In this document: piece by piece, positions 7,506 to 20,235 of the stretch
Layout of the letters: every line of letters starts with the position of its first letter
Numbering within the stretch: position 1 is the stretch's first letter
Assembly (NCBI GenBank): GCA_030603365.1
Contig: JAUVXV010000004.1
Location: forward strand, 144,210-168,209
Direction of reading: 5' to 3'
DNA length: 24,000 bases
From: Candidatus Heimdallarchaeota archaeon
GTDB taxonomy: Archaea; Asgardarchaeota; Heimdallarchaeia; Heimdallarchaeales; Heimdallarchaeaceae
Position numbers and translations under genes: made by a program
The notes under the pieces: generated by a model
Databases searched by the model: none
What the model saw: only the letters and a program-made list of their open reading frames with translations
Told to the model about the DNA's origin: nothing

Positions 7506-10118
7506 TCATAGTTCTATTCGAGGGTCTACTGCCACATAAACAATATCTGTTATCAGATTTCCTAGTAATATTAATATTGTAAGCAATGCTGTCGTTCCCA
7601 GTATCATTGGAAAGTCTAATAGGATCACCGCGCTTACATACTTGAATCCTAATCCTGGCCACGTAAAGAGTGTTTCAGTGATTGGAGCTCCTGCAAGTGC
7701 TGTAGCTAGAAATAGTCCAATGTAAGTAACAACTGGAATTAAAACATTCCTGAAAGCATGTCTCCAAGTAATGGATCTTTCTGAAAGTCCATTTGCTCTA
7801 GCTGATAAAATATAATCTTGTCGAAGAACCTCAAGCATTGTTGATCTAACCAATCTGGTATATAATGCAATAGATGCAAATGTTAATGCAATGATTGGTA
7901 AGACCATATGGAGCATTGAATCTAACAATCTTTCCGACACATTCGCCCACCACGTAGACATATTCCCTGACCAGAATAAACTCCAATTCGTATCACTGAA
8001 TACTGGCATGGGTGCTGGTACACGATGAGCTTTTGCAGCTGGGAACCAGCCCAGACCATATCCACTAAATATGTAAATCAATAATAATCCAAACACAAAA
8101 ATTGGCATTGAAAGACCTAATAGTGCAAATGCACTAGCTGCTGAATCAATCCATGAATTTTGATTTTTTGCTGCTAAAATTCCTAGAGGAATTGCTATTA
8201 AGAGGGCAAACACAAATGATGCCAATTGAAGTTTTAGTGTTTCCCAAACTAATCCTCCAATCATGTCATTAATAGATTGACCAGATTGGAAGCTAGTTCC
8301 CATATCTCCGTGAAGCAGGTTGTAAAACCAAACTACAAATTGTACATAGATTGGTTGATCTAAGCCTAATTTCCGCGTCAGATTTAATCTATCTGCTTCC
8401 GTTACTCTTTGTTTTCCTAGAAGAAGTAAAGTTACTGGGTCTCCCATTCCACTAACCATTACAAATGTCATAACACATATCGCTATGAACAGAGGAATGA
8501 GGGTCAGCAATCTTCTTGTAATATATGTTGTTAATCTTAAAGTAGCAACATTCTTAATCCATTTAATTACACCAGTCTCACCTACTCTTCTAGTCATTGT
8601 TGAATCTGAGGGTTTTTGCCAGTCAACGGGTAAGAAAATACCTGTGAGCATCACAAAGATTCCTATCACAAACAAATAGAAACCTGGTTCAATAGTTCCT
8701 GTAAGAGCTATGTTGAAGAAAGCAGGATTCGAATCATTAGGATTAAAGGTTATCGGGCTGAAGGTTATCGCATCTTGTCCAGAAATAATCGCTTCATATC
8801 TTCCAGCAGCAATTATCATCGATCTATTCATCGCTAGAATTGCGGCTACAAGCGATGTAAGCAAGAGAATACCACCGGCTATATCGGCAATTATACCTCT
8901 TGATTTTAACTCTCCACTTTGGAATACTTGTCCTAAAACAATCGCCATAAGAGCAAAGAGAATAGTAAACCAAACAGCAGCTGCTAAGATTATTATGCTA
9001 CTAGGTGTTTCTGCTTGTAAAAATCTTGCTTGTGTTATGTTATCTGCGCTGTCATAGGTTATGAGTCTATAATCAACACTAAAACTATATATTTCAACAA
9101 GGTTTCCAAAACTATCTTTATTGTAACGTGGTCTCACACTATAAACTTCTAAACCTGTTCCTGATTCAGCCACATATGCATATCCATCTATAACAAACAA
9201 TGCAACTGACTCTGCAGAAGTGTTATATGAACCTGCACTTTGTAAAACAACTGGGTTAATAATTGAAACAATGTGTAACCCATAGCTTGAATCAGTAATA
9301 TAGGCGTGTTCATTATCTATATCTATCCCTTTAACATCTCCTGAAACATCATATTGATTCCCGAATATTGGGACTTCTGGATTTGTCAAGTTAACAGATT
9401 GCAATCCGAAGTTTGCACCTACAATATATGCATAATCACCTTGAACATCAACATCATACACAGGATTACCTGCTTCATATGTTCCAATTAAAGTTGGATC
9501 GGTTGGATCACTCACATTCAAGACATGTAATCCTACTGTTGAATCTACAACATATGCAACGTCCTCTTGAACTACTACGCTATTTACATCACCAGAAATA
9601 CTGTATGTGCCTTCTTGAGATGGTGTTGCTGGAGTACTTACATCAAGTATTTGTAATCCTATTGTTGAATCTACAACATAAGCATAGTCGTTTAAAACAT
9701 ATACATTGTTCGCACCGCCAGCGATGCTATAAGTTCCTAAACTTGTTGGTGTTGTTGGATCTGTTACATCTACAGTTTGTAACCCTGTATTGGTATCAGC
9801 AATGTAAGCAACATTATCTGCAACAAATATACCATTGGAACTACCCGTTATACTGTAAATTCCAATAATGTCTATTGTCTGTGCATCAGTTACATTTACA
9901 ATAACTAATCCTGAATCAGAATTCAAAACATATGCAAAGCCACCATCATAATAAACTGCTGTTAAATTACCTACAATGATTTGTGTATTTTCAAGTACAA
10001 TGGGTTCTGGTTCTGCAGAAGTTGAATCAAAATCAAGACCATACAAAGGTACAAAAGCTGCGATAAAAATAAGAGCAAAACCAACAATTTTAAGAGAAAT
10101 TGCTACACTTTTATCCAT
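7506..10118 (-). CDS. Fusion protein: signal-anchor + seven LVIVD-repeat beta-propeller + extra TM segments + OppB/DppB-type ABC permease
   Basis: 870-aa ORF. Residues 1-27 form a hydrophobic anchor. Residues 50-330 hold seven GL[VQH][IVT][VL][NDS]V-type LVIVD repeats at exactly 42-aa spacing. Residues 372-500 are hydrophobic helices. From about residue 528 (ITRRLLTLIPLF...) to the end is a canonical OppB permease, including SARANGLSERSI (EAA loop). Confidence 0.88.
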   Translation of the reverse strand: MDKSVAISLKIVGFALIFIAAFVPLYGLDFDSTSAEPEPIVLENTQIIVGNLTAVYYDGGFAYVLNSDSGLVIVNVTDAQTIDIIGIYSITGSSNGIFVADNVAYIADTNTGLQTVDVTDPTTPTSLGTYSIAGGANNVYVLNDYAYVVDSTIGLQILDVSTPATPSQEGTYSISGDVNSVVVQEDVAYVVDSTVGLHVLNVSDPTDPTLIGTYEAGNPVYDVDVQGDYAYIVGANFGLQSVNLTNPEVPIFGNQYDVSGDVKGIDIDNEHAYITDSSYGLHIVSIINPVVLQSAGSYNTSAESVALFVIDGYAYVAESGTGLEVYSVRPRYNKDSFGNLVEIYSFSVDYRLITYDSADNITQARFLQAETPSSIIILAAAVWFTILFALMAIVLGQVFQSGELKSRGIIADIAGGILLLTSLVAAILAMNRSMIIAAGRYEAIISGQDAITFSPITFNPNDSNPAFFNIALTGTIEPGFYLFVIGIFVMLTGIFLPVDWQKPSDSTMTRRVGETGVIKWIKNVATLRLTTYITRRLLTLIPLFIAICVMTFVMVSGMGDPVTLLLLGKQRVTEADRLNLTRKLGLDQPIYVQFVVWFYNLLHGDMGTSFQSGQSINDMIGGLVWETLKLQLASFVFALLIAIPLGILAAKNQNSWIDSAASAFALLGLSMPIFVFGLLLIYIFSGYGLGWFPAAKAHRVPAPMPVFSDTNWSLFWSGNMSTWWANVSERLLDSMLHMVLPIIALTFASIALYTRLVRSTMLEVLRQDYILSARANGLSERSITWRHAFRNVLIPVVTYIGLFLATALAGAPITETLFTWPGLGFKYVSAVILLDFPMILGTTALLTILILLGNLITDIVYVAVDPRIEL
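9129..9971 (-). repeat. Intragenic tandem repeat: 7 x 126-nt (42-aa) LVIVD blades
   Basis: The GL-x-hydrophobic-x-V motif falls at residues 70, 112, 154, 196, 238, 280 and 322. At the DNA level, tcctactgttgaatctacaacata (9531) and tcctattgttgaatctacaacata (9657) are exactly 126 nt apart with one mismatch. Confidence 0.85.
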
Positions 10119-10467: not shown

Positions 10468-10545
10468 GGGGCAGTGATCTAGCCTGGCTATGATACCTCC
10501 TTGACGTGGAGGAAGTCGCAAGTTCGAATCTTGCCTGCCCCACCA
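10468..10545 (+). tRNA. tRNA-Val (anticodon GAC), CCA encoded
   Basis: Hand-folded cloverleaf: acceptor ggggcag/ctgcccc, anticodon stem cctcc/ggagg with loop ttGACgt, variable aagtc, T-arm gcaag-ttcgaat-cttgc, discriminator a, then CCA (10543-10545). A T-rich tract follows at 10546-10557. Confidence 0.9.
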
Positions 10546-13877: not shown

Positions 13878-13987
13878 TATTAAGTTCTAAAACATTATAA
13901 TTCTAAACTTTTACTCTAGTATTTTAAAAATCTTTAAAGTCATAACATTCTTAAACATTCAAAGTTCATGCTCTTTAGCGAAGCCCA
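13878..13987. promoter_or_regulatory. Divergent promoter region (Nudix gene leftward, five-gene operon rightward) with several TATA-like boxes
   Basis: 110-nt AT-rich intergenic spacer containing ttttaaaaat (13923-13932), ctttaaag (13932-13939) and cttaaacatt (about 13950-13959). No transcription start can be assigned from sequence alone. Confidence 0.35.
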
Positions 13988-14590
13988 ATGACTAACTTCA
14001 TTCAGAATTTCAGACGTTCAATTCGTAGGAAACTAGGCTACCCAGAAGTTTCTATCCTTGTTTTAGGAGATAATAATCCTGCTACTAGGAATCGGGCTCT
14101 ACTAACTAAATCAGAAACATCTCTTAATGAGTTTATCATTGATAACTCTTTAGTAGAACTGCCTTATGCTTTGAACTTTAAATTCAAACATAATCTATTT
14201 GTTCCATTTGAAGGCTTACTGTATTTCATTGATTCAACAAAAGAAGAAATGATAAAACATGAAAGAAATTTCCTTTGGGAGAAAATCGTCTGGAATGCTG
14301 AAACTCAGAATTTACCTATTGCTCTCTGCGCATATAACTCAAATTTACAAGGAGCATTATCCAGAGGGGAATTAATAGAAAATCTTTCTTTGATTCGATT
14401 AACAGATAGACTCTGGAATCTCTTTGAGACACCAGAAGTGCCATCTATAATTGAAGCACTAAAGTGGCTGAAAAAGGTAATTCATATAGGCTATGTTAAG
14501 TCATGGGAAGAAAAAGAAAAATTATTATTAAAAATTAAACCTGTAGAAATTCAGATCACTACAGAAGAAGAAAATGATCTAGATGTATAA
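13988..14590 (+). CDS. Arf/Arl/Sar-family-like small GTPase fold protein with all nucleotide-binding motifs degenerate (candidate pseudo-GTPase)
   Basis: By-eye alignment to eukaryotic Arf1, recalled from memory. ILVLGDNNPATRN aligns with ILMVGLDAAGKTT (P-loop lost). GLLYFIDSTKEE aligns with GLIFVVDSNDRE. IALCAYNSNLQGALSRGELIENLSL aligns with [25 protein letters not shown] (NKxD becomes YNSN). EALKWLKK aligns with EGLDWLSN. No DxxGQ equivalent is present. Confidence 0.6.
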   Translation: MTNFIQNFRRSIRRKLGYPEVSILVLGDNNPATRNRALLTKSETSLNEFIIDNSLVELPYALNFKFKHNLFVPFEGLLYFIDSTKEEMIKHERNFLWEKIVWNAETQNLPIALCAYNSNLQGALSRGELIENLSLIRLTDRLWNLFETPEVPSIIEALKWLKKVIHIGYVKSWEEKEKLLLKIKPVEIQITTEEENDLDV

Positions 14591-14607
14591 TAAAAGAGGT
14601 ACCTCTA

Positions 14608-16158
14608 ATGACACTCTCAATACAGAATTTAATGAAAGACGGGTATGAAGGATTTTCCGTTAGATCGATTTTAATGAATCCTGAATTCCGAGACAGAGTT
14701 TTAAAAGATGTTAGCGTAAGAGGAAACGAAGTAGGTAAGAACCTTGTGATGGATAAACTCGCAGTTGGTGGAAAGGTTCTACTTACAGGTCCAACCGGTG
14801 AAGCTAAAACACTGTTTGCTAGAGTACTACTTGACCATTTAGTCAGAGAAATCAACAATTTCAAATACCACATAGCTGATTGTCCATTTTTAGAAGATGC
14901 TGGATATATCATTGATATTATAGAAAACTTTCCTGCAAATCCTTTTGCTGGTATTCGTGTTATGCAATCCCTATGTCCTTATTGTAGGAATAACATTGAA
15001 ACTATTCTATCAAAAGATGGAAACGTTGTTCAACTAGATAACACCAACAGTGTTCTAGAAATTTCTCCAAAGGAAATAGTAAGTAGATTAGGAAAACTGG
15101 AAGCAGGTAAAACAACTGTTCGTAGATCACAACTAGACCCAAGAACTGATCCTGAAAGTCTTTATATGTTATTGGCTGGAGTTGAAAACTTAGAAGAATT
15201 ATTCGGAAAAGATACTTCAACAACATTTGCAGCTACTTCACATAAAGTAGGAGTTCTATCTCACGGATTCATTGTAGTTAACGAAATCCAAAGACTCCCA
15301 CTTAGTCTGCTAGAATCCCTCATGGGTTTTCTTGAAGAACCAATGGGTATCAAGTATAACATTCAAGGAGAACCAGTTTATATCGATGGTGCAGTTCTTT
15401 TCACTTCAAATGCTCCTTTAACAGTTTTTGGAGAAGAAAGTCAACCTATTATCAATCGTATTCCTGAAGTTCTTTGGCCCGCACGTTCAGTAGAAAGCAG
15501 AGAACAAATCCTCAAAGATATGTTCGATGAACAATTAGTTCTAACAAGAAAGAAAATTACTGCTAATCCTTCAATTATTCAATTGCATGAACTTGGAAAA
15601 GAAGCAACTGACTATGTAAGCAGACTAGCACTGGATTTCTTGGCTTTCTTGGGAAACAATTCACTTCCTGAATCACTTAAGACCAAAGGATTACGTTCTG
15701 AAAGTAGATTGGCTCGTAATGATTTTTACTCAGGTCTTGATGAAGTTCACGACCCACAAAGGAACCCACATATTGACCTTCGTACTATGAATAACATCAT
15801 TGGAGAAACTGTGTTGTTCCAAATAAGAGAAGGCAAAGATTCAGATATAAACGTTATAACACTGGAAAAAATACGAAACACTATGGGTGCATATGATGTT
15901 CCTGCTTCAATGATAAATGATGCTTTACAACAATTAAAAATCGTTTTACGAACAGCCATTAAGGAAGCTGAAGTCTCAATCAATGTTAAAGATATATCAG
16001 AAGACATTTCAAAAATGAAAGCTTTAAGTGATGCTGAAATGTCAGAACTCATTGTAAAGTTTGAAGGTCTTGATAGATTCAAAGAGAATATTCGTAACAA
16101 AATAGTGGAAAAACTCCAATTATCATATGAACAGTTACTAAAGGTAGATTATATCTAA
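14608..16158 (+). CDS. ChlI/BchI-MoxR-clade AAA+ ATPase-like protein with variant Walker A/B motifs and a Cys/His insertion
   Basis: Walker A-like GPTGEAKT (14788-14811), Walker B-like FIVVNE (15268-15285, Asn in place of Asp), sensor-1-like LFTSN and Arg-finger-like IINRIPE. The order and spacing resemble Mg-chelatase subunit I. HIADC...CPYC sits after Walker A, where ChlI-like proteins carry an insertion. A GAGGT ribosome-binding site lies 7 nt upstream of the ATG. Confidence 0.75.
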   Translation: MTLSIQNLMKDGYEGFSVRSILMNPEFRDRVLKDVSVRGNEVGKNLVMDKLAVGGKVLLTGPTGEAKTLFARVLLDHLVREINNFKYHIADCPFLEDAGYIIDIIENFPANPFAGIRVMQSLCPYCRNNIETILSKDGNVVQLDNTNSVLEISPKEIVSRLGKLEAGKTTVRRSQLDPRTDPESLYMLLAGVENLEELFGKDTSTTFAATSHKVGVLSHGFIVVNEIQRLPLSLLESLMGFLEEPMGIKYNIQGEPVYIDGAVLFTSNAPLTVFGEESQPIINRIPEVLWPARSVESREQILKDMFDEQLVLTRKKITANPSIIQLHELGKEATDYVSRLALDFLAFLGNNSLPESLKTKGLRSESRLARNDFYSGLDEVHDPQRNPHIDLRTMNNIIGETVLFQIREGKDSDINVITLEKIRNTMGAYDVPASMINDALQQLKIVLRTAIKEAEVSINVKDISEDISKMKALSDAEMSELIVKFEGLDRFKENIRNKIVEKLQLSYEQLLKVDYI

Positions 16159-16192
16159 GGTGATCTTACTTTAACTTTGCAGAGTTGATAAA

Positions 16193-17578
16193 ATGCCCCA
16201 TCGAATAAATTTCGTAACTGAAGCAGAATTTGCTGATCCATTGCAACACTACAGTAACCAAGAGTTTGTTCTTGAGTTTGAAGATGCTGCTCAAGTGTTA
16301 AAATTATGGCGAAATCCACATTTGGGTAGAAGTTCTCGTGAAGGTGCAGTTTTATCCATTGCTTCTAAAAATGCTGTTGCAGTAGAAAACATAATACAGA
16401 AAATTATGAATACATACTTGACTGCTGCTGAAGAAGAACGACTAGTTAATGAAATTAAACTCCTTCGTTTTATTGGTGAACGCGTACTTCCAGATGTTTT
16501 GGAAAGAGTAAATCGTAACGAACTTCAAACAGTAGAAGATATTCTAAAGTATATTCAGGAACTTCTGAAGGAAATAAAACATGAAGGGTCTGTTGACCTT
16601 CAACGTTTAGCAGAAAAACTCAATCAACTGAAGGATATTGTAGATATTGAAATTACTGATGCTTTTGGAAGGAAAAAGAGAATCTCACGAGAAAGTGTCA
16701 TGGACCTTCTAGGGAAAATCCTCGGTAGATATTTAGTGAAACAAATATCTGTTGCACCAATTGATGAAGTTCAAAAGCGCCCTAGAGGCACAATTAGATT
16801 AAAAGAAACTTATCGTAGAGCGATATTAAGTTCTCAATCTGTTCCTCCTACTAAAGTGAAACAAGAAGATATAATGAGAGTTAAGAAAGATCGTCGATCT
16901 TTAGTGTATCTAATTGTTGATATGAGCCAATCTATGCGGAAAAGTGTTTTTGAAGGAGGGATGTCTCGTTTAGATGGGGCACTTCTTACTAGTCTCAGTT
17001 TATACTACTATTTCAAGACACTCAACAGAAGAAAAAGGAAAAGCTATGATATGTTCAAACTTGCTGTTGTTCCTATTAGAAAGAATCCTACAGTTATAGA
17101 TGGTGATAACAACATGGAGCAACTTCTACTCACAGCTGAAGCACGTGGAAAAACATATATGGTTCAAAGCGTTCTCGCTGCGATTGAGCATGCAAAAAGT
17201 CAATATATAGAGAAAGATATTGACGTTCAGTTCACAATTGTAACAGATGGAATGCCTAATGTGCCTTCTTATCCCTTCAAGCACCGCACAAATAAAGAAC
17301 TCAAGAAGTATTTCGATGAGATTGATACTAAAACTAGACCAAATACTATAGAATGCTTACTACAACTTAACGGAATCTTTTCAAGTTTAAAGAATGACCG
17401 GTCAAGAAACTGGAATGTGTCTTATTTCTTAATGGGGCCAGATTCACTAAGAAACAAGGAAATCTATATACATACCAAAAGAATGCTGAAAGGAATCACA
17501 AGGCCTATATTAGTAGACCCAGCCCAAGTTAGGAATCTTGGAGAACAGATACTAAGGGAGAGTATTTTATATGCTTAA
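16193..17578 (+). CDS. von Willebrand factor A (vWA) domain protein with an intact MIDAS motif and a helical N-terminal domain of about 230 aa
   Basis: The MIDAS motif DxSxS is DMSQS (16919-16933), preceded by the hydrophobic strand LVYLIV. A downstream Thr (GKTYM) and TDG (17243-17251) complete the MIDAS set. The position after an AAA+ gene mirrors ChlI-ChlD and MoxR-vWA pairs. Confidence 0.8.
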   Translation: MPHRINFVTEAEFADPLQHYSNQEFVLEFEDAAQVLKLWRNPHLGRSSREGAVLSIASKNAVAVENIIQKIMNTYLTAAEEERLVNEIKLLRFIGERVLPDVLERVNRNELQTVEDILKYIQELLKEIKHEGSVDLQRLAEKLNQLKDIVDIEITDAFGRKKRISRESVMDLLGKILGRYLVKQISVAPIDEVQKRPRGTIRLKETYRRAILSSQSVPPTKVKQEDIMRVKKDRRSLVYLIVDMSQSMRKSVFEGGMSRLDGALLTSLSLYYYFKTLNRRKRKSYDMFKLAVVPIRKNPTVIDGDNNMEQLLLTAEARGKTYMVQSVLAAIEHAKSQYIEKDIDVQFTIVTDGMPNVPSYPFKHRTNKELKKYFDEIDTKTRPNTIECLLQLNGIFSSLKNDRSRNWNVSYFLMGPDSLRNKEIYIHTKRMLKGITRPILVDPAQVRNLGEQILRESILYA

Positions 17579-19145
17579 AGAAGAACTTGCGGAGATAATT
17601 GTTGTTTATCAAAATGCTCGTGAGGATTTCAAAACTCTTGTAGGAGAAACTCCTGAAAATTATAGAGTTCTTATTTTTCTTGACCCTGAAATGCATGTTT
17701 CTGTTAATCGAGTGGTAGAGGTCACAGGAACTCCTCAAGCTATACTAACTTCTGAGCAGATAACAAATCTTAGATCTGCAAGGATAAGTGAATTTCTTCC
17801 TACTGGAAAAGAAACTGTCTATAATTCTCTTCCTACACTAATTTATCTATCAGTACCCTCCTACGAACTAACAATGGAGGAAGAACTGACCTTAAGAGTG
17901 ATGCTTATTCATGCTTTTGCTCATGCTCTTATGAATGAGAAAACTGAATCAAATTCAGCGAGAGTTTTGGCTCAACTATATCAATTGGATGTTATACTCA
18001 AGGAACTAATGAGTAACAATGTTTTCCAGTTGAATAAAGTATCAAAAGACAAACATGTTTGGGCTTGGCAGTATTTCCAAGATTTAATTGGTGTAATAAG
18101 ATTATTTACAGAAGCAGGTGTGGACGATTTCTATACTCCTCCTGAAGAAGCAAGAAAGTATACTCTGTTCAATAACTTTTCAATTGAAGCAATAAATCTC
18201 ATAGGAGAACGAGCAAAAACTGCAAGAAAGAAACATCTTCACGATATTATAGATGAAGGATTTGCTCATTATATACAACAAAAAGCAATAGAATACTTGT
18301 TAAAGAAAGATGAATACAAGCTTCCAAAAAGACATGAAGATAGATCCATAATATATCCAAATGGATTAAAAGCATTTTTAGCTCCTCCAGTAGGAGTTTT
18401 CAGTCAAGTAGCTATTAACAAACTTCTTACTAAATATAAAGATGAAAAGGAGATGTTTTCTAAATTATTCTCCTACAAATCTGATATAGAGTTTCTTGAA
18501 GAATTTACTTGGGATGAAATAAAGGATTTATTGGCAGTTAACAAAAATGCTCATTCAGAATATGTTGTAGATCATTGGCACTCATCAATAAGTAGATGGT
18601 CAGATATATGGTCTGTCTATGCTTATGGATGGAGGCAGATAGAAGAATACGTAAGTAAAGTTTTCAGAAGAAAATATTCTACTTTTGGTCAACTTCTTGA
18701 TGAAAATCCAAGTATTTCTTTTAAAGGATATGTTAAAGTGGATAACAAGAAAGTATATGTTTTTGAGGCTAATGATTATGGTATTGGAATAGATCAATTA
18801 GTCATTCTTCACAATCATATGTCTCTTTATAGAGATGATTTCAAAACAATTCTTCCTGCTTTTGCTGATGTGATTGTCTTTAAGAAAGTTGGAGGAATTC
18901 ATGTTGCTACTTTATTTGCAGTCCACAAGGCCAAGTATAAATCTCTCTCGCCATATAACTTACCAGTTATAACCAGGGCAGTTCAAGTGACAAAAAGAAA
19001 GGATGCATATAAGTTTGATTTAGACGAGGAAAAGGAAGCAAAATTCGAAATTAGAAATATTGACTATACACATCTCAGAAAGTTGACTCAACCTCAACGA
19101 GGTGCTATTAGTTATCTAATAAAGGAGGGGTTGTTTGAATTATGA
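17571..19145 (+). CDS. Large hypothetical protein with a zincin-like motif pair (HAFAH ... DEGFAHY); possibly an inactive gluzincin-like fold
   Basis: 524-aa ORF whose start overlaps the upstream stop by 8 nt. MLIHAFAHALMNE (HAxxH at 17910-17924) and IIDEGFAHYIQ (18252-18272) resemble the HExxH and (N)EGFAxY motifs of MA-clan gluzincins, but the catalytic Glu is Ala and the spacing is about 115 aa. Confidence 0.45.
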   Translation: MLKEELAEIIVVYQNAREDFKTLVGETPENYRVLIFLDPEMHVSVNRVVEVTGTPQAILTSEQITNLRSARISEFLPTGKETVYNSLPTLIYLSVPSYELTMEEELTLRVMLIHAFAHALMNEKTESNSARVLAQLYQLDVILKELMSNNVFQLNKVSKDKHVWAWQYFQDLIGVIRLFTEAGVDDFYTPPEEARKYTLFNNFSIEAINLIGERAKTARKKHLHDIIDEGFAHYIQQKAIEYLLKKDEYKLPKRHEDRSIIYPNGLKAFLAPPVGVFSQVAINKLLTKYKDEKEMFSKLFSYKSDIEFLEEFTWDEIKDLLAVNKNAHSEYVVDHWHSSISRWSDIWSVYAYGWRQIEEYVSKVFRRKYSTFGQLLDENPSISFKGYVKVDNKKVYVFEANDYGIGIDQLVILHNHMSLYRDDFKTILPAFADVIVFKKVGGIHVATLFAVHKAKYKSLSPYNLPVITRAVQVTKRKDAYKFDLDEEKEAKFEIRNIDYTHLRKLTQPQRGAISYLIKEGLFEL

Positions 19146-19915
19146 GTTTCCTAGATTTCTTACGCGGATTAACAATAGGAAGAAAACTAAAAAGTGAAGA
19201 TCCATTAGATCGTGCATATTTCTCTCTTTTCATACGAAGAAGAGGAAAAGCTAAGGATATTAAAAGAATTTACCCTTTGATTGAGGATTCGGATTGGAAT
19301 GTGAGAAATGCAGCAGCAGCTACCATTATAGAATTAGCTTCTAAATATCCAGAAATCAAAAAGAATGTTCTTAATCACCTTCATAATCTAATTGAAAATA
19401 GCTCTTTGGCAATTAAACTTTCTACTTTGGAAGTTTTAGGTCATCTGAAAGATTATGGTTCAAAACCTTACTTAGTTAAGATTTTGGAAGAAAGTGATTA
19501 TGATCTTCAATATGCAGCTATACGCGCAATTGGTTATTTAGATGATGTTGATGTTCTTAATCCACTTAAAAACGTAGTTTATGCAAGAGATTATATCACA
19601 AGAAGAGCAGCAATACTCTCCGTTGTCAGAATTGCAAATTCAGTTAAAGAGGAAGAACAAGTCGGAAAATTAACCGATCATATGCATATTGTAATGGAAT
19701 CTTACCTTGAATTAGAAGAGTTAGGGGAGACTATTTGTAAGATAATGGATTTTGCAGAAGTAGATAAACTACCTGAAATGAAAGGATATTCAGAATCAGA
19801 AATTGTTAAATTGGAAGGATTAATTGAGCAAAAAGATTATAGCGTTGAACTCTACCAGAATTTCGCTAGATTGATTTTTCCTGTATATTTCCCACTTGAT
19901 GAGGAGGAAAACTAG
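19142..19915 (+). CDS. HEAT-repeat (PBS-lyase HEAT-like) protein
   Basis: 257-aa ORF with an ATGA start/stop overlap with the upstream gene and AGGAGGGG upstream. Repeated helical units have the D-x-x-VR-x-x-A-x-x-x-L/G pattern: DWNVRNAAAATIIELA, AIKLSTLEVLGHLKD, DLQYAAIRAIGYLDD, ITRRAAILSVVRIAN. Confidence 0.7.
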   Translation: MSFLDFLRGLTIGRKLKSEDPLDRAYFSLFIRRRGKAKDIKRIYPLIEDSDWNVRNAAAATIIELASKYPEIKKNVLNHLHNLIENSSLAIKLSTLEVLGHLKDYGSKPYLVKILEESDYDLQYAAIRAIGYLDDVDVLNPLKNVVYARDYITRRAAILSVVRIANSVKEEEQVGKLTDHMHIVMESYLELEELGETICKIMDFAEVDKLPEMKGYSESEIVKLEGLIEQKDYSVELYQNFARLIFPVYFPLDEEEN

Positions 19916-20235
19916 AACCTTCTCCTTCTAAATTTGTCTGTGCAGAAATCCACAAACTCTTTTCCTATTTCATTCAAGTCTTTTTCTTGTTTCCATTTCT
20001 TTTCAGTATGTTCTTGTATTTCTAGACCACAAAGATGAAAACATGTTGATATTAAGGCAAATCCCATCATTCTTTCTCTAAGGTTGTCAGAATCTATCAG
20101 TTTCAAAGCTCTCTTTTGGTGGGGATTTATCACTTCAGATTCTTCGTAAAAAACTTGATCTGTCTCTGTGGTAACAATCATTATTATTATAGAATCGTTA
20201 TTTGAGTATATAAAACTACAATAAACGGTAAGCAA
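19912..20235 (-). CDS. Hypothetical protein (no recognisable motif; the start is probably an internal Met)
   Basis: This is the only long ORF in the interval. Its 3' end overlaps the convergent HEAT gene by 4 nt. It has a basic C-terminus (KFRRRRF), and I recognise no family. Confidence 0.3.
   Translation of the reverse strand: MLTVYCSFIYSNNDSIIIMIVTTETDQVFYEESEVINPHQKRALKLIDSDNLRERMMGFALISTCFHLCGLEIQEHTEKKWKQEKDLNEIGKEFVDFCTDKFRRRRF

Follow-up and report, generated by a model that had tools for sequence, protein, structure and literature searches.

Three neighbouring genes encoding PrkA (YeaG), YeaH (DUF444) and SpoVR (YcgB) stand in this order in Sphingobium and Mesorhizobium (L069, L070), and triads of the PrkA/SpoVR type are also present in an uncultured organism and in phages. 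Cofitness of yeaG, yeaH and ycgB in six bacteria functionally links the members of the bacterial triad (10.1101/072470), and PrkA of Bacillus anthracis is needed for sporulation and for survival of osmotic stress (PMC13001217). Among archaea, the canonical triad had by 2011 been reported only in haloarchaea, as their signature (PMC3102087); no literature linking Asgard archaea with PrkA or SpoVR was found. Here a related arrangement is described in a 24,000-nucleotide stretch of a Candidatus Heimdallarchaeota archaeon (contig JAUVXV010000004.1, positions 144,210 to 168,209), hereafter the window, in which five co-directional genes, g1 to g5, occupy positions 13,988 to 19,915:

13988-14590, + strand: g1, 200 amino acids (aa), Arf-derived pseudo-GTPase
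14608-16158, + strand: g2, 516 aa, PrkA-type AAA+ ATPase
16193-17578, + strand: g3, 461 aa, von Willebrand factor A (vWA) protein with a metal ion-dependent adhesion site (MIDAS)
17571-19145, + strand: g4, 524 aa, SpoVR-like protein
19142-19915, + strand: g5, 257 aa, HEAT-repeat protein

The reading favoured here, with a probability of about 0.62, is that the five genes form one operon in which g2-g3-g4 represents a very diverged version of the PrkA-YeaH/YhbH(DUF444)-SpoVR triad, supplemented by a HEAT-repeat protein and usually by an Arf-derived protein. The initial annotation of the locus, made from its letters alone, was mostly right in its domain calls and had assigned the cluster to no named system. 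The core triad matches a named one in both content and order, an outcome of the kind that this annotation had listed as refuting its view, although the mechanism and client of that module are themselves unsolved; the cluster is best regarded as a Heimdallarchaeia-specific, strongly diverged version of an already known module.

Proposed relationship of g2, g3 and g4 to PrkA, DUF444 and SpoVR

Profile comparison with hhalign used multi-sequence reference alignments of PrkA (10 members), DUF444/YeaH and SpoVR, drawn from E. coli, Cupriavidus, Mesorhizobium, Sphingobium, Bacillus, an uncultured organism, a jumbo phage and two Thermus phages. These references were informative, and comparisons with the single E. 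coli YeaG, YeaH and YcgB sequences were too weak to judge. When every pairing was run, as a 3x3 matrix plus g1, the best matches fell on the diagonal: g2 with PrkA, g3 with DUF444 and g4 with SpoVR. All mismatched pairings gave P-values (P) of at least 0.024.

The g2-PrkA pairing is the strongest, with a probability of 98.6% and P 8.9e-16 over 259 columns. The alignment spans the AAA+ domain, and the last aligned residue shown is g2 residue 292 or thereabouts. The principal motifs of g2 are:

14788-14811, + strand: Walker A, GPTGEAKT, residues 61-68, with Ala before Lys where Gly is expected
14869-14985, + strand: conserved insert between Walker A and Walker B, with H88, C92 (in CPFLEDAGY) and C123-x-x-C126
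15268-15285, + strand: Walker B, FIVVNE, with Asn225 in place of Asp; N225 and E226 invariant

Residues G61, E65 and K67 of Walker A are invariant among the g2 orthologs, as are several arginines and N268, which lies in an FTSN motif at the sensor-1 position. The 'CP-x-x-E' and 'CP-x-C' motifs of the insert and the Walker B strand line up with PrkA, where the insert reads 'egcPi-e-P ... l-P-c' and Val-Glu stands opposite the Asn-Glu of g2. The Cys-rich insert is likely to bind zinc, judging from its residues. An exhaustive HMMER profile search with the g2 alignment against 1.84e9 representative proteins returned 22 proteins, mostly fragments of the g2 family itself. The full-length outsiders were two canonical PrkA proteins (P0227 and P0231), the 464-aa P0228 (AAA_PrkA 1.3e-11) and the unannotated P0220 and P0224. 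The CP-x-x-ED...CP-x-C insert of g2 is common to P0220, P0224 and P0228, and its Asn-Glu Walker B also occurs in P0224 and P0228. A search of PDB sequences with the g2 family profile was uninformative, its sole matches being a P-loop segment of ClpX and a designed helical bundle.

Among 28 g2 orthologs, Pfam gave weak matches to AAA_5, Sigma54 and Mg_chelatase (PF01078; 6/28, only at E-values (E) of at least 0.02), none to AAA_3 (MoxR, PF07726), and one, below threshold, to AAA_PrkA (PF08298). The designation of g2 as a ChlI/MoxR-type AAA+ protein therefore holds at the level of the superclade, its specific relatives being the AAA domains of PrkA. Thus g2 is related to PrkA through its AAA+ domain and is without the kinase-like C-terminal domain. 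It is 516 aa long, against 600-740 aa for PrkA. As the C-terminal domain is one of the defining features of PrkA, g2 is not to be classed with that family.

The second pairing, g3 with DUF444, gave P 3.9e-4 over 178 columns, the best of the three references for g3 (controls 0.38-0.59), and the alignment extends about 80 residues upstream of the vWA core. The features of g3 are:

16193-17578, + strand: g3 domains, N-terminal helical (about 1-215) and C-terminal vWA (about 235-461)
16919-16933, + strand: MIDAS motif, D243-M-S245-Q-S247
17153-17155 and 17246-17248, + strand: further MIDAS residues, T321 and D352

The five residues D243, S245, S247, T321 and D352 are invariant in both the 22-ortholog and the 37-ortholog sets, and VWA_2 was matched by 21/37 orthologs. 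An AlphaFold2 model (predicted local distance difference test, pLDDT, 79.7) consists of an all-helical N-terminal domain and a vWA domain, and a Foldseek search of the PDB matched it to vWA structures with E down to 6e-6, including Rpn10, TFIIH p44, INTS14, Rea1-MIDAS and NorD. Accordingly, g3 carries a vWA fold with a complete MIDAS, as had been proposed for it from the letters alone.

The g4 protein is the most diverged of the three, and single-sequence searches of Pfam, NCBIfam and the PDB gave nothing useful for it or for g3. Its features are:

17571-19145, + strand: g4 domains, an alpha/beta N-terminal domain, a helical region and a C-terminal beta-rich domain
17910-17924, + strand: H114-A-F-A-H118, an H-x-x-x-H motif on a helix following the strand 'TLIYLS'
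18255-18269, + strand: E229-G-F-A-H233, aligned by hhalign (local mode) to SpoVR N-E283-G-W-A-x-x-x-H290

The H-x-x-x-H motif aligns to 'AHACYGH' of SpoVR and 'AHVLGH' of its phage counterpart, so that H114, H118 and E229 correspond to H122, H127 and E283, which together with H290 are among the invariant residues of SpoVR. A relaxed g4-SpoVR alignment is colinear through the strand, the HxxxH motif and the E-G-[FW]-A motif. In local alignments, 'DEGFAHYI' of g4 stands opposite 'NEGWATFWHY' of bacterial SpoVR, and 'ETVYNSLPTLIYLS...LIHAFAHALMNE' stands opposite 'EIVFNLTPARAYLG...VAHVLGHSHMF' of the SpoVR of Thermus phage phiLo, with identical H-x-x-x-H spacing. E229 is present in 12/12 g4 orthologs that have H114 and H118 and is missing in 9/9 that lack H118. 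Because the three residues are kept or lost as a unit, they probably constitute one functional site, and the residue types suggest that it binds metal. The suggestion that g4 is a zincin-like HAxxH protein without the catalytic Glu is made plausible by this co-variation. In other respects it fared less well: the HAFAH motif is lost in one subclade, and the g4 model (pLDDT 81.5; predicted template modelling score 0.83) had no significant fold match among PDB structures and none to a zincin (best E 0.73). The PDB holds no SpoVR structure, which would account for the empty fold search. A metagenome scan with the SpoVR alignment recovered only close relatives, at 64% identity or more, and added no useful diversity.

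Two loci outside the family proper bear on the origin of the triad. At L061 (1140-4017), the gene for P0228, which has a g2-like Cys insert and no kinase-like domain, overlaps the start of a gene for a 499-aa DUF444-like vWA protein. The best Pfam family of this protein is DUF444, and by hhalign it matches both DUF444 (P 4e-7) and g3 (P 9e-10). The genes downstream are neither g4- nor SpoVR-like. L061 could represent an evolutionary stage between the canonical PrkA systems and the cluster of Heimdallarchaeia. The second locus, L063 (Logan SRR26786796, 101-10460), is a packed co-directional array of genes for proteins of 237, 510, 456, 505, 730, 509 and 324 aa, none with a Pfam match. Distant homologs of g2, g3 and g4 are found here in the same order, as the 510-aa (P0220), 456-aa and 505-aa products (g3 homolog, P 2e-17 over 390 columns; g4 homolog, P 7e-9 over 407 columns), and the g4 homolog contains VHAFTHV. 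The gene upstream of the three is not g1-like, and the g4 homolog was unmatched in the phage collection. Since L063 holds homologs of g2, g3 and g4 together, the AAA+/vWA/g4-like triad is older than Heimdallarchaeia. Among phages, Thermus phages MN1 (L153) and phiLo (L154) and an uncultured 595-kb phage (L152) carry diverged sets of their own, in which genes for a hypothetical protein (in the DUF444 position), SpoVR and a PrkA annotated as 'serine kinase' stand in a row.

Several observations weigh against the relationship to the PrkA-YeaH-SpoVR triad. No member of the 28 g2 orthologs matched the PrkA C-terminal kinase-like domain (PF06798), DUF444 (PF04285) was matched by 0/37 g3 orthologs, and SpoVR (PF04293) was matched by 0/21 g4 orthologs, which had no Pfam match at all; neither DUF444 nor SpoVR is a Pfam family under which the cluster should be listed. 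Most of the g3-DUF444 signal comes from the vWA core, a part that all vWA proteins share. SpoVR is the best of the three references for g4, at P 0.02-0.03, a value that is not significant alone, and the outgroup g4 homolog by itself gave P 0.6 against SpoVR. The one significant match to g4 among the predicted viral structures of BFVD (A0A3Q8HYQ4, 617 aa, E 2.6e-4, probability 1.00) speaks for SpoVR by its length, which is exactly that of the SpoVR of Thermus phage phiLo; its TM-score is low (0.35), however, and the two have not been confirmed to be the same protein. Orthologs of g2 that do not adjoin g3 and g4 occur in Hodarchaeales (L003 and L156) and on a 2.85-Mb ENA contig (L004). Finally, the reference module is itself biochemically unsettled: the purified PrkA of B. 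anthracis showed negligible kinase and protease activity (PMC13001217).

These points leave room for a stand-alone remodeller of the MoxR-vWA kind, in which a PrkA-like ATPase gave rise to g2, neither is g3 related to YeaH nor g4 to SpoVR, the gene order matches by coincidence, and g4 or g5 is the client to be folded or loaded with metal. Besides the missing DUF444 and SpoVR Pfam matches and the marginal g4-SpoVR P-value, this explanation is favoured by the best Pfam families of g3, which are the generic VWA_2, VWA and VWA_CoxE, and by its fold neighbours NorD and Rea1-MIDAS, which partner MoxR-like and dynein-like AAA+ proteins. It would have to treat as accidental the diagonal of the hhalign matrix, the colinear SpoVR motifs of g4 and the co-variation of its H/H/E residues, the pairing at L061 of an AAA_PrkA-type ATPase with a DUF444-like vWA protein that matches g3, and the SpoVR length of the lone BFVD match, whose identity with SpoVR is unconfirmed. 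It is therefore considered unlikely. Homology of g4 to SpoVR is in turn considered likely.

Operon layout and conservation across Heimdallarchaeia

The spacing of the five genes is minimal, and every element of the layout that the initial annotation described was read again in the sequence. The g1-g2 junction is a 17-nucleotide gap, TAAAAGAGGTACCTCTA, with GAGGT inside, and the g2-g3 junction is a gap of 34 nucleotides. The g3 and g4 genes overlap by 8 nucleotides, ATGCTTAA, at 17571-17578, and g4 and g5 by ATGA at 19142-19145, with AGGAGGGG just before. Shine-Dalgarno-like sites are present at the junctions, and the flanks of the unit consist of an AT-rich spacer upstream and a convergent gene downstream:

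13878-13987, + strand: intergenic spacer upstream of g1, 110 nucleotides, AT-rich, shared with a divergent NUDIX gene

The five genes constitute one operon, and their spacing suggests a single transcript. The spacer is presumed to be the promoter region of both g1 and the NUDIX gene. Scans for sigma-70 promoters and intrinsic terminators gave nothing above shuffled sequence, these being bacterial-type models that are not applicable to archaea.

Database homologs of g2 number 106 (about 515 aa); all with a source name are labelled as Asgard, mostly Heimdallarchaeia. With each species represented by one genome, a scan gave 54 loci; nearly all have Heimdallarchaeota in their titles, and two of the genomes are complete, those of Ca. 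Heimdallarchaeum endolithica and H. aukensis. By tblastn with the window proteins, the order and strand of g1-g2-g3-g4-g5 are repeated in about 50 loci, essentially every one that is long enough, down to identities of 51% for g2, 44% for g3, 37% for g4 and 30% for g5. Adjacency and co-direction of AAA+, vWA and SpoVR-like genes are thus found in the window and in about 50 loci, a statement that hinges on the assignments of g3 and g4. At some loci g5 was missed by tblastn; a positional ortholog is present there (hhalign P <= 1e-44 against the g5 profile). The flanking NUDIX, UvrB and PLP-enzyme (PALP) genes are retained only in close relatives. Since order and strand recur in about 50 loci while the flanks change, the arrangement is far beyond chance.

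The g1 gene is less constant. At four loci of one subclade the upstream open reading frame (ORF) encodes an unrelated Zn-ribbon or FKBP protein, and at L039 g1 is about 2 kb distant on the opposite strand. Because g1 is replaced or relocated at some loci, only g2-g5 count as the universal core, with g1 as a common addition found in most but not all lineages; with this correction, the single co-conserved unit that the initial annotation proposed was borne out. In the most distant member (L001; 36% g2 identity), homologs of g3 and g4, followed by a gene for a 391-aa HEAT-containing protein (HEAT_2 match 1e-4), are transcribed divergently from the g2 gene. No resemblance to g1 was seen in the small genes that adjoin the AAA+ gene in L001, L003 and L063. 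Public records label most orthologs of g1-g5 'hypothetical protein'; a small number are named in general terms, for example 'VWA domain-containing protein' or 'MoxR-like ATPase'.

The separate g2 orthologs have surroundings of their own. In the Hodarchaeales-type metagenome-assembled genomes (L003, 7365-9551; L156, 5835-7990), a g2 ortholog at 43-45% identity follows a gene for a 192-aa protein of the winged-helix type (PadR/HTH_34-like), and the KH/RIO1/SRP54/carbamoyltransferase neighbourhood of the two is conserved. At L004 (8001-9560), a 52%-identical g2 ortholog adjoins the gene for the large subunit of DNA polymerase D, with no g1, g3, g4 or g5 within 8 kb.

Pairs of AAA+ and vWA proteins form the core of the predicted vWA-MoxR-VMAP conflict systems. 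That the cluster is an anti-virus or conflict module akin to these ternary systems, as had been hypothesized, gains something from this shared core, from the PrkA/SpoVR triads of phages and from the position of the distant L063 array among Pfam-less genes. The five proteins had no meaningful PADLOC match (only TRIP13 at 3e-4, in the P-loop region, and HEAT-type matches on g5), and no VMAP or effector Pfam family was matched by g1, g4 or g5. Across related genomes there is a single cluster with fixed housekeeping neighbours (NUDIX, UvrB, PLP enzymes) and divergence roughly in step. Because the neighbourhood is fixed and divergence tracks these neighbours, vertical inheritance is favoured over a defence island, and the conflict explanation is very improbable.

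The g1 and g5 proteins and the surrounding genes

The g1 protein matches Pfam Arf (PF00025) at 25.9 bits, above the cut-off of 22.3 bits. A search of the PDB with the g1 family profile gave 86 matches, and all 60 listed are of the Arf/Arl family, the best being Arl1 (1.5e-10), with the Asgard Arf entries 8ouk and 8oul among the matches. The relevant features of g1 are:

14066-14089, + strand: degenerate P-loop position, GDNNPATR where GxxxxGK[ST] is expected
13988-14035, + strand: N-terminal amphipathic helix, residues 1-16, MTNFIQNFRRSIRRKL

None of the 17 g1 orthologs has the P-loop GxxxxGK[ST] (G1), DxxG (G3) or NKxD (G4) motif. Only L24 and G27 are conserved in the P-loop region, where Lys-Ser/Thr occurs in no ortholog, and AYNSN occupies the NKxD position. 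As the G1, G3 and G4 motifs are missing from every ortholog, g1 is, by its sequence, an Arf-family-derived pseudo-GTPase and not a working GTPase, in agreement with the first description of it as Arf-like. Residues 1-16 have a hydrophobic moment of 0.86, reached by 0.4% of shuffles. The amphipathic helix is strong in the window's clade only and is missing in other clades; by analogy to Arf, it may bind membrane in the window's clade. No transmembrane-like segments were found in any of the five proteins.

The g5 protein is a HEAT-repeat protein, as first annotated, with a HEAT_2 match of 7e-24 in 4 stretches and a HEAT match of 2.7e-7 in Pfam. Adaptin_N was matched below threshold (1.6e-5, 24.1 bits against a 37-bit cut-off).

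These two proteins invite the proposal, to be regarded as quite doubtful, that an Arf-family protein became a nucleotide-free subunit which, with the HEAT solenoid, tethers or regulates a PrkA-type AAA+/vWA machine, at the membrane in the window's clade. If true, the pairing of Arf protein and solenoid known from eukaryotic coat adaptors would have a prokaryotic precedent, and operon linkage would for the first time have placed an Asgard Arf-family protein in a functional context. In any case, the operon shows an Arf-derived pseudo-GTPase of Asgard archaea in its gene context; neither gene neighbourhoods nor operons are mentioned in the Asgard Arf preprint.

A trafficking or coat-like assembly goes further, combining an Arf/Sar-like subunit, a Sec23/24-like vWA 'trunk' and an adaptin-like alpha-solenoid. 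This idea, also put forward in the initial annotation, draws on the Arf ancestry and amphipathic helix of g1 in the window's clade, on the sub-threshold Adaptin_N match of g5 and on a host lineage that is the closest known to eukaryotes. It is highly unlikely: g1 cannot switch, as no ortholog has GTP-binding motifs, and is missing from the operon in some lineages; its helix is unconserved outside one clade; no Sec23/24 trunk match was found in Pfam (37 g3 orthologs) or among the top 50 fold matches of g3, whose N-terminal domain is all-helical; and the core is explained by a PrkA-type module. A metal chelatase or insertase of the ChlI-ChlD or CobS-CobT kind, suggested by the label 'Mg-chelata...' on one g3 ortholog in a JGI record and by the faint Mg_chelatase matches of 6/28 g2 orthologs, deserves hardly any credence, as those matches are far under threshold, the specific relatives of g2 are PrkA AAA domains, and no ChlH/CobN-type subunit is encoded in the window or the examined loci.

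Downstream of g5 lies a convergent ORF of 107 aa (19912-20235, - strand), which shares 4 nucleotides with the end of g5. It has no Pfam, NCBIfam or PADLOC match and is kept at the same position, with 39-79% identity, in close relatives only; because of this positional conservation it is probably a real small gene. Two 117-aa ORFs on the - strand lie antisense to g2, at 14559-14912 (also spanning the g1-g2 junction) and 15747-16100. Low-complexity, Ser/Leu-rich and opposite the strongly conserved g2, they are most likely not genes. Elsewhere in the window, an 870-aa ORF (7506-10118, - strand) joins LVIVD-repeat/beta-propeller sequence (N-terminal ~500 aa) to a BPD_transp_1 Opp/Dpp-type permease of the ATP-binding cassette (ABC) class, a fusion unusual for a permease, and sits within an oligopeptide ABC transporter operon. 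A tRNA-Val gene (anticodon GAC; 10468-10545, + strand) was called by ARAGORN and Rfam alike.

Possible function and comparison with known systems

If the relationship of g2-g3-g4 to the PrkA-YeaH-SpoVR triad holds, the five products might form one assembly. The g2 protein would act as an ATP-driven AAA+ ring that remodels a protein target, and g3 would be its adaptor, using the MIDAS metal to hold on to an acidic residue that belongs either to the target or to g4. Since it is without the catalytic Glu, g4 would more likely be a metal-binding sensor, regulator or substrate than a peptidase. The g5 protein could be the scaffold of the assembly and g1 a nucleotide-independent regulatory or localising subunit, which in the window's clade may sit on the membrane by way of the amphipathic helix at its N-terminus. 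If the bacterial module is a guide, the role might lie in stress, starvation or dormancy signalling.

The link to the bacterial triad would provide a testable frame, in stress or dormancy signalling, and would extend the module within archaea beyond the haloarchaea of the 2011 report. The Heimdall version would then indicate that the kinase-like domain is dispensable and that two His and one Glu of the SpoVR-like protein act as one site; this site points to metal binding as a conserved SpoVR feature. Conservation of the cluster in the archaeal class closest to eukaryotes suggests that its cellular role is probably a basic one.

Like PrkA-YeaH-SpoVR, the Heimdall cluster has three genes in the order AAA+, MIDAS-vWA and a protein of about 500 aa with H...H and E-G-[FW]-A motifs, its g2 has a PrkA-type AAA+ domain with the family insert and an Asp-less Walker B, and a client is known for neither the bacterial nor the Heimdall module. 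In contrast to the bacterial triad, g2 is without PF06798, g3 and g4 have diverged too far for the Pfam DUF444 and SpoVR models, the HEAT protein is always and the Arf-derived pseudo-GTPase usually added, and one Heimdall subclade is without the H/H/E site of g4.

With the MoxR-vWA pairs (RavA-ViaA, NorQ-NorD, CbbQ-CbbO) and with ChlI-ChlD/CobS-CobT, the cluster shares an AAA+ gene that adjoins a vWA-MIDAS gene, the weak AAA_5/Sigma54/Mg_chelatase similarity of g2 and the presence of NorD among the fold neighbours of g3. It differs from them in that g2 has no AAA_3 or significant Mg_chelatase match and has a PrkA-type insert, and in that no client gene (NOR, Rubisco, ChlH/CobN) accompanies it. 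Midasin (Rea1/Mdn1) likewise combines an AAA+ motor with a MIDAS domain, and Rea1-MIDAS/Mdn1 takes ranks 9-10 among the g3 fold matches; midasin is a single giant polypeptide with six dynein-like AAA modules, so that the two share a working principle and no specific sequence relationship.

The gluzincins (HExxH...E) resemble g4 in having a His pair four residues apart on a helix after a beta-strand and a downstream Glu, which in g4 belongs to the E-G-F-A motif and co-varies with the two His. Unlike in gluzincins, Ala replaces the catalytic Glu after the first His of g4, the downstream Glu lies about 110 residues beyond the His pair, and the PDB search gave no zincin fold. The Asgard Arf GTPases (ArfR; 8ouk/8oul) and eukaryotic Arf/Arl proteins, finally, are the sole family among the listed PDB matches of g1, which in the window's clade has the same succession of N-terminal amphipathic helix and beta-1; it departs from them in having lost the nucleotide-binding motifs in all orthologs, in aligning well only over its C-terminal two-thirds, and in being encoded inside an AAA+/vWA operon.

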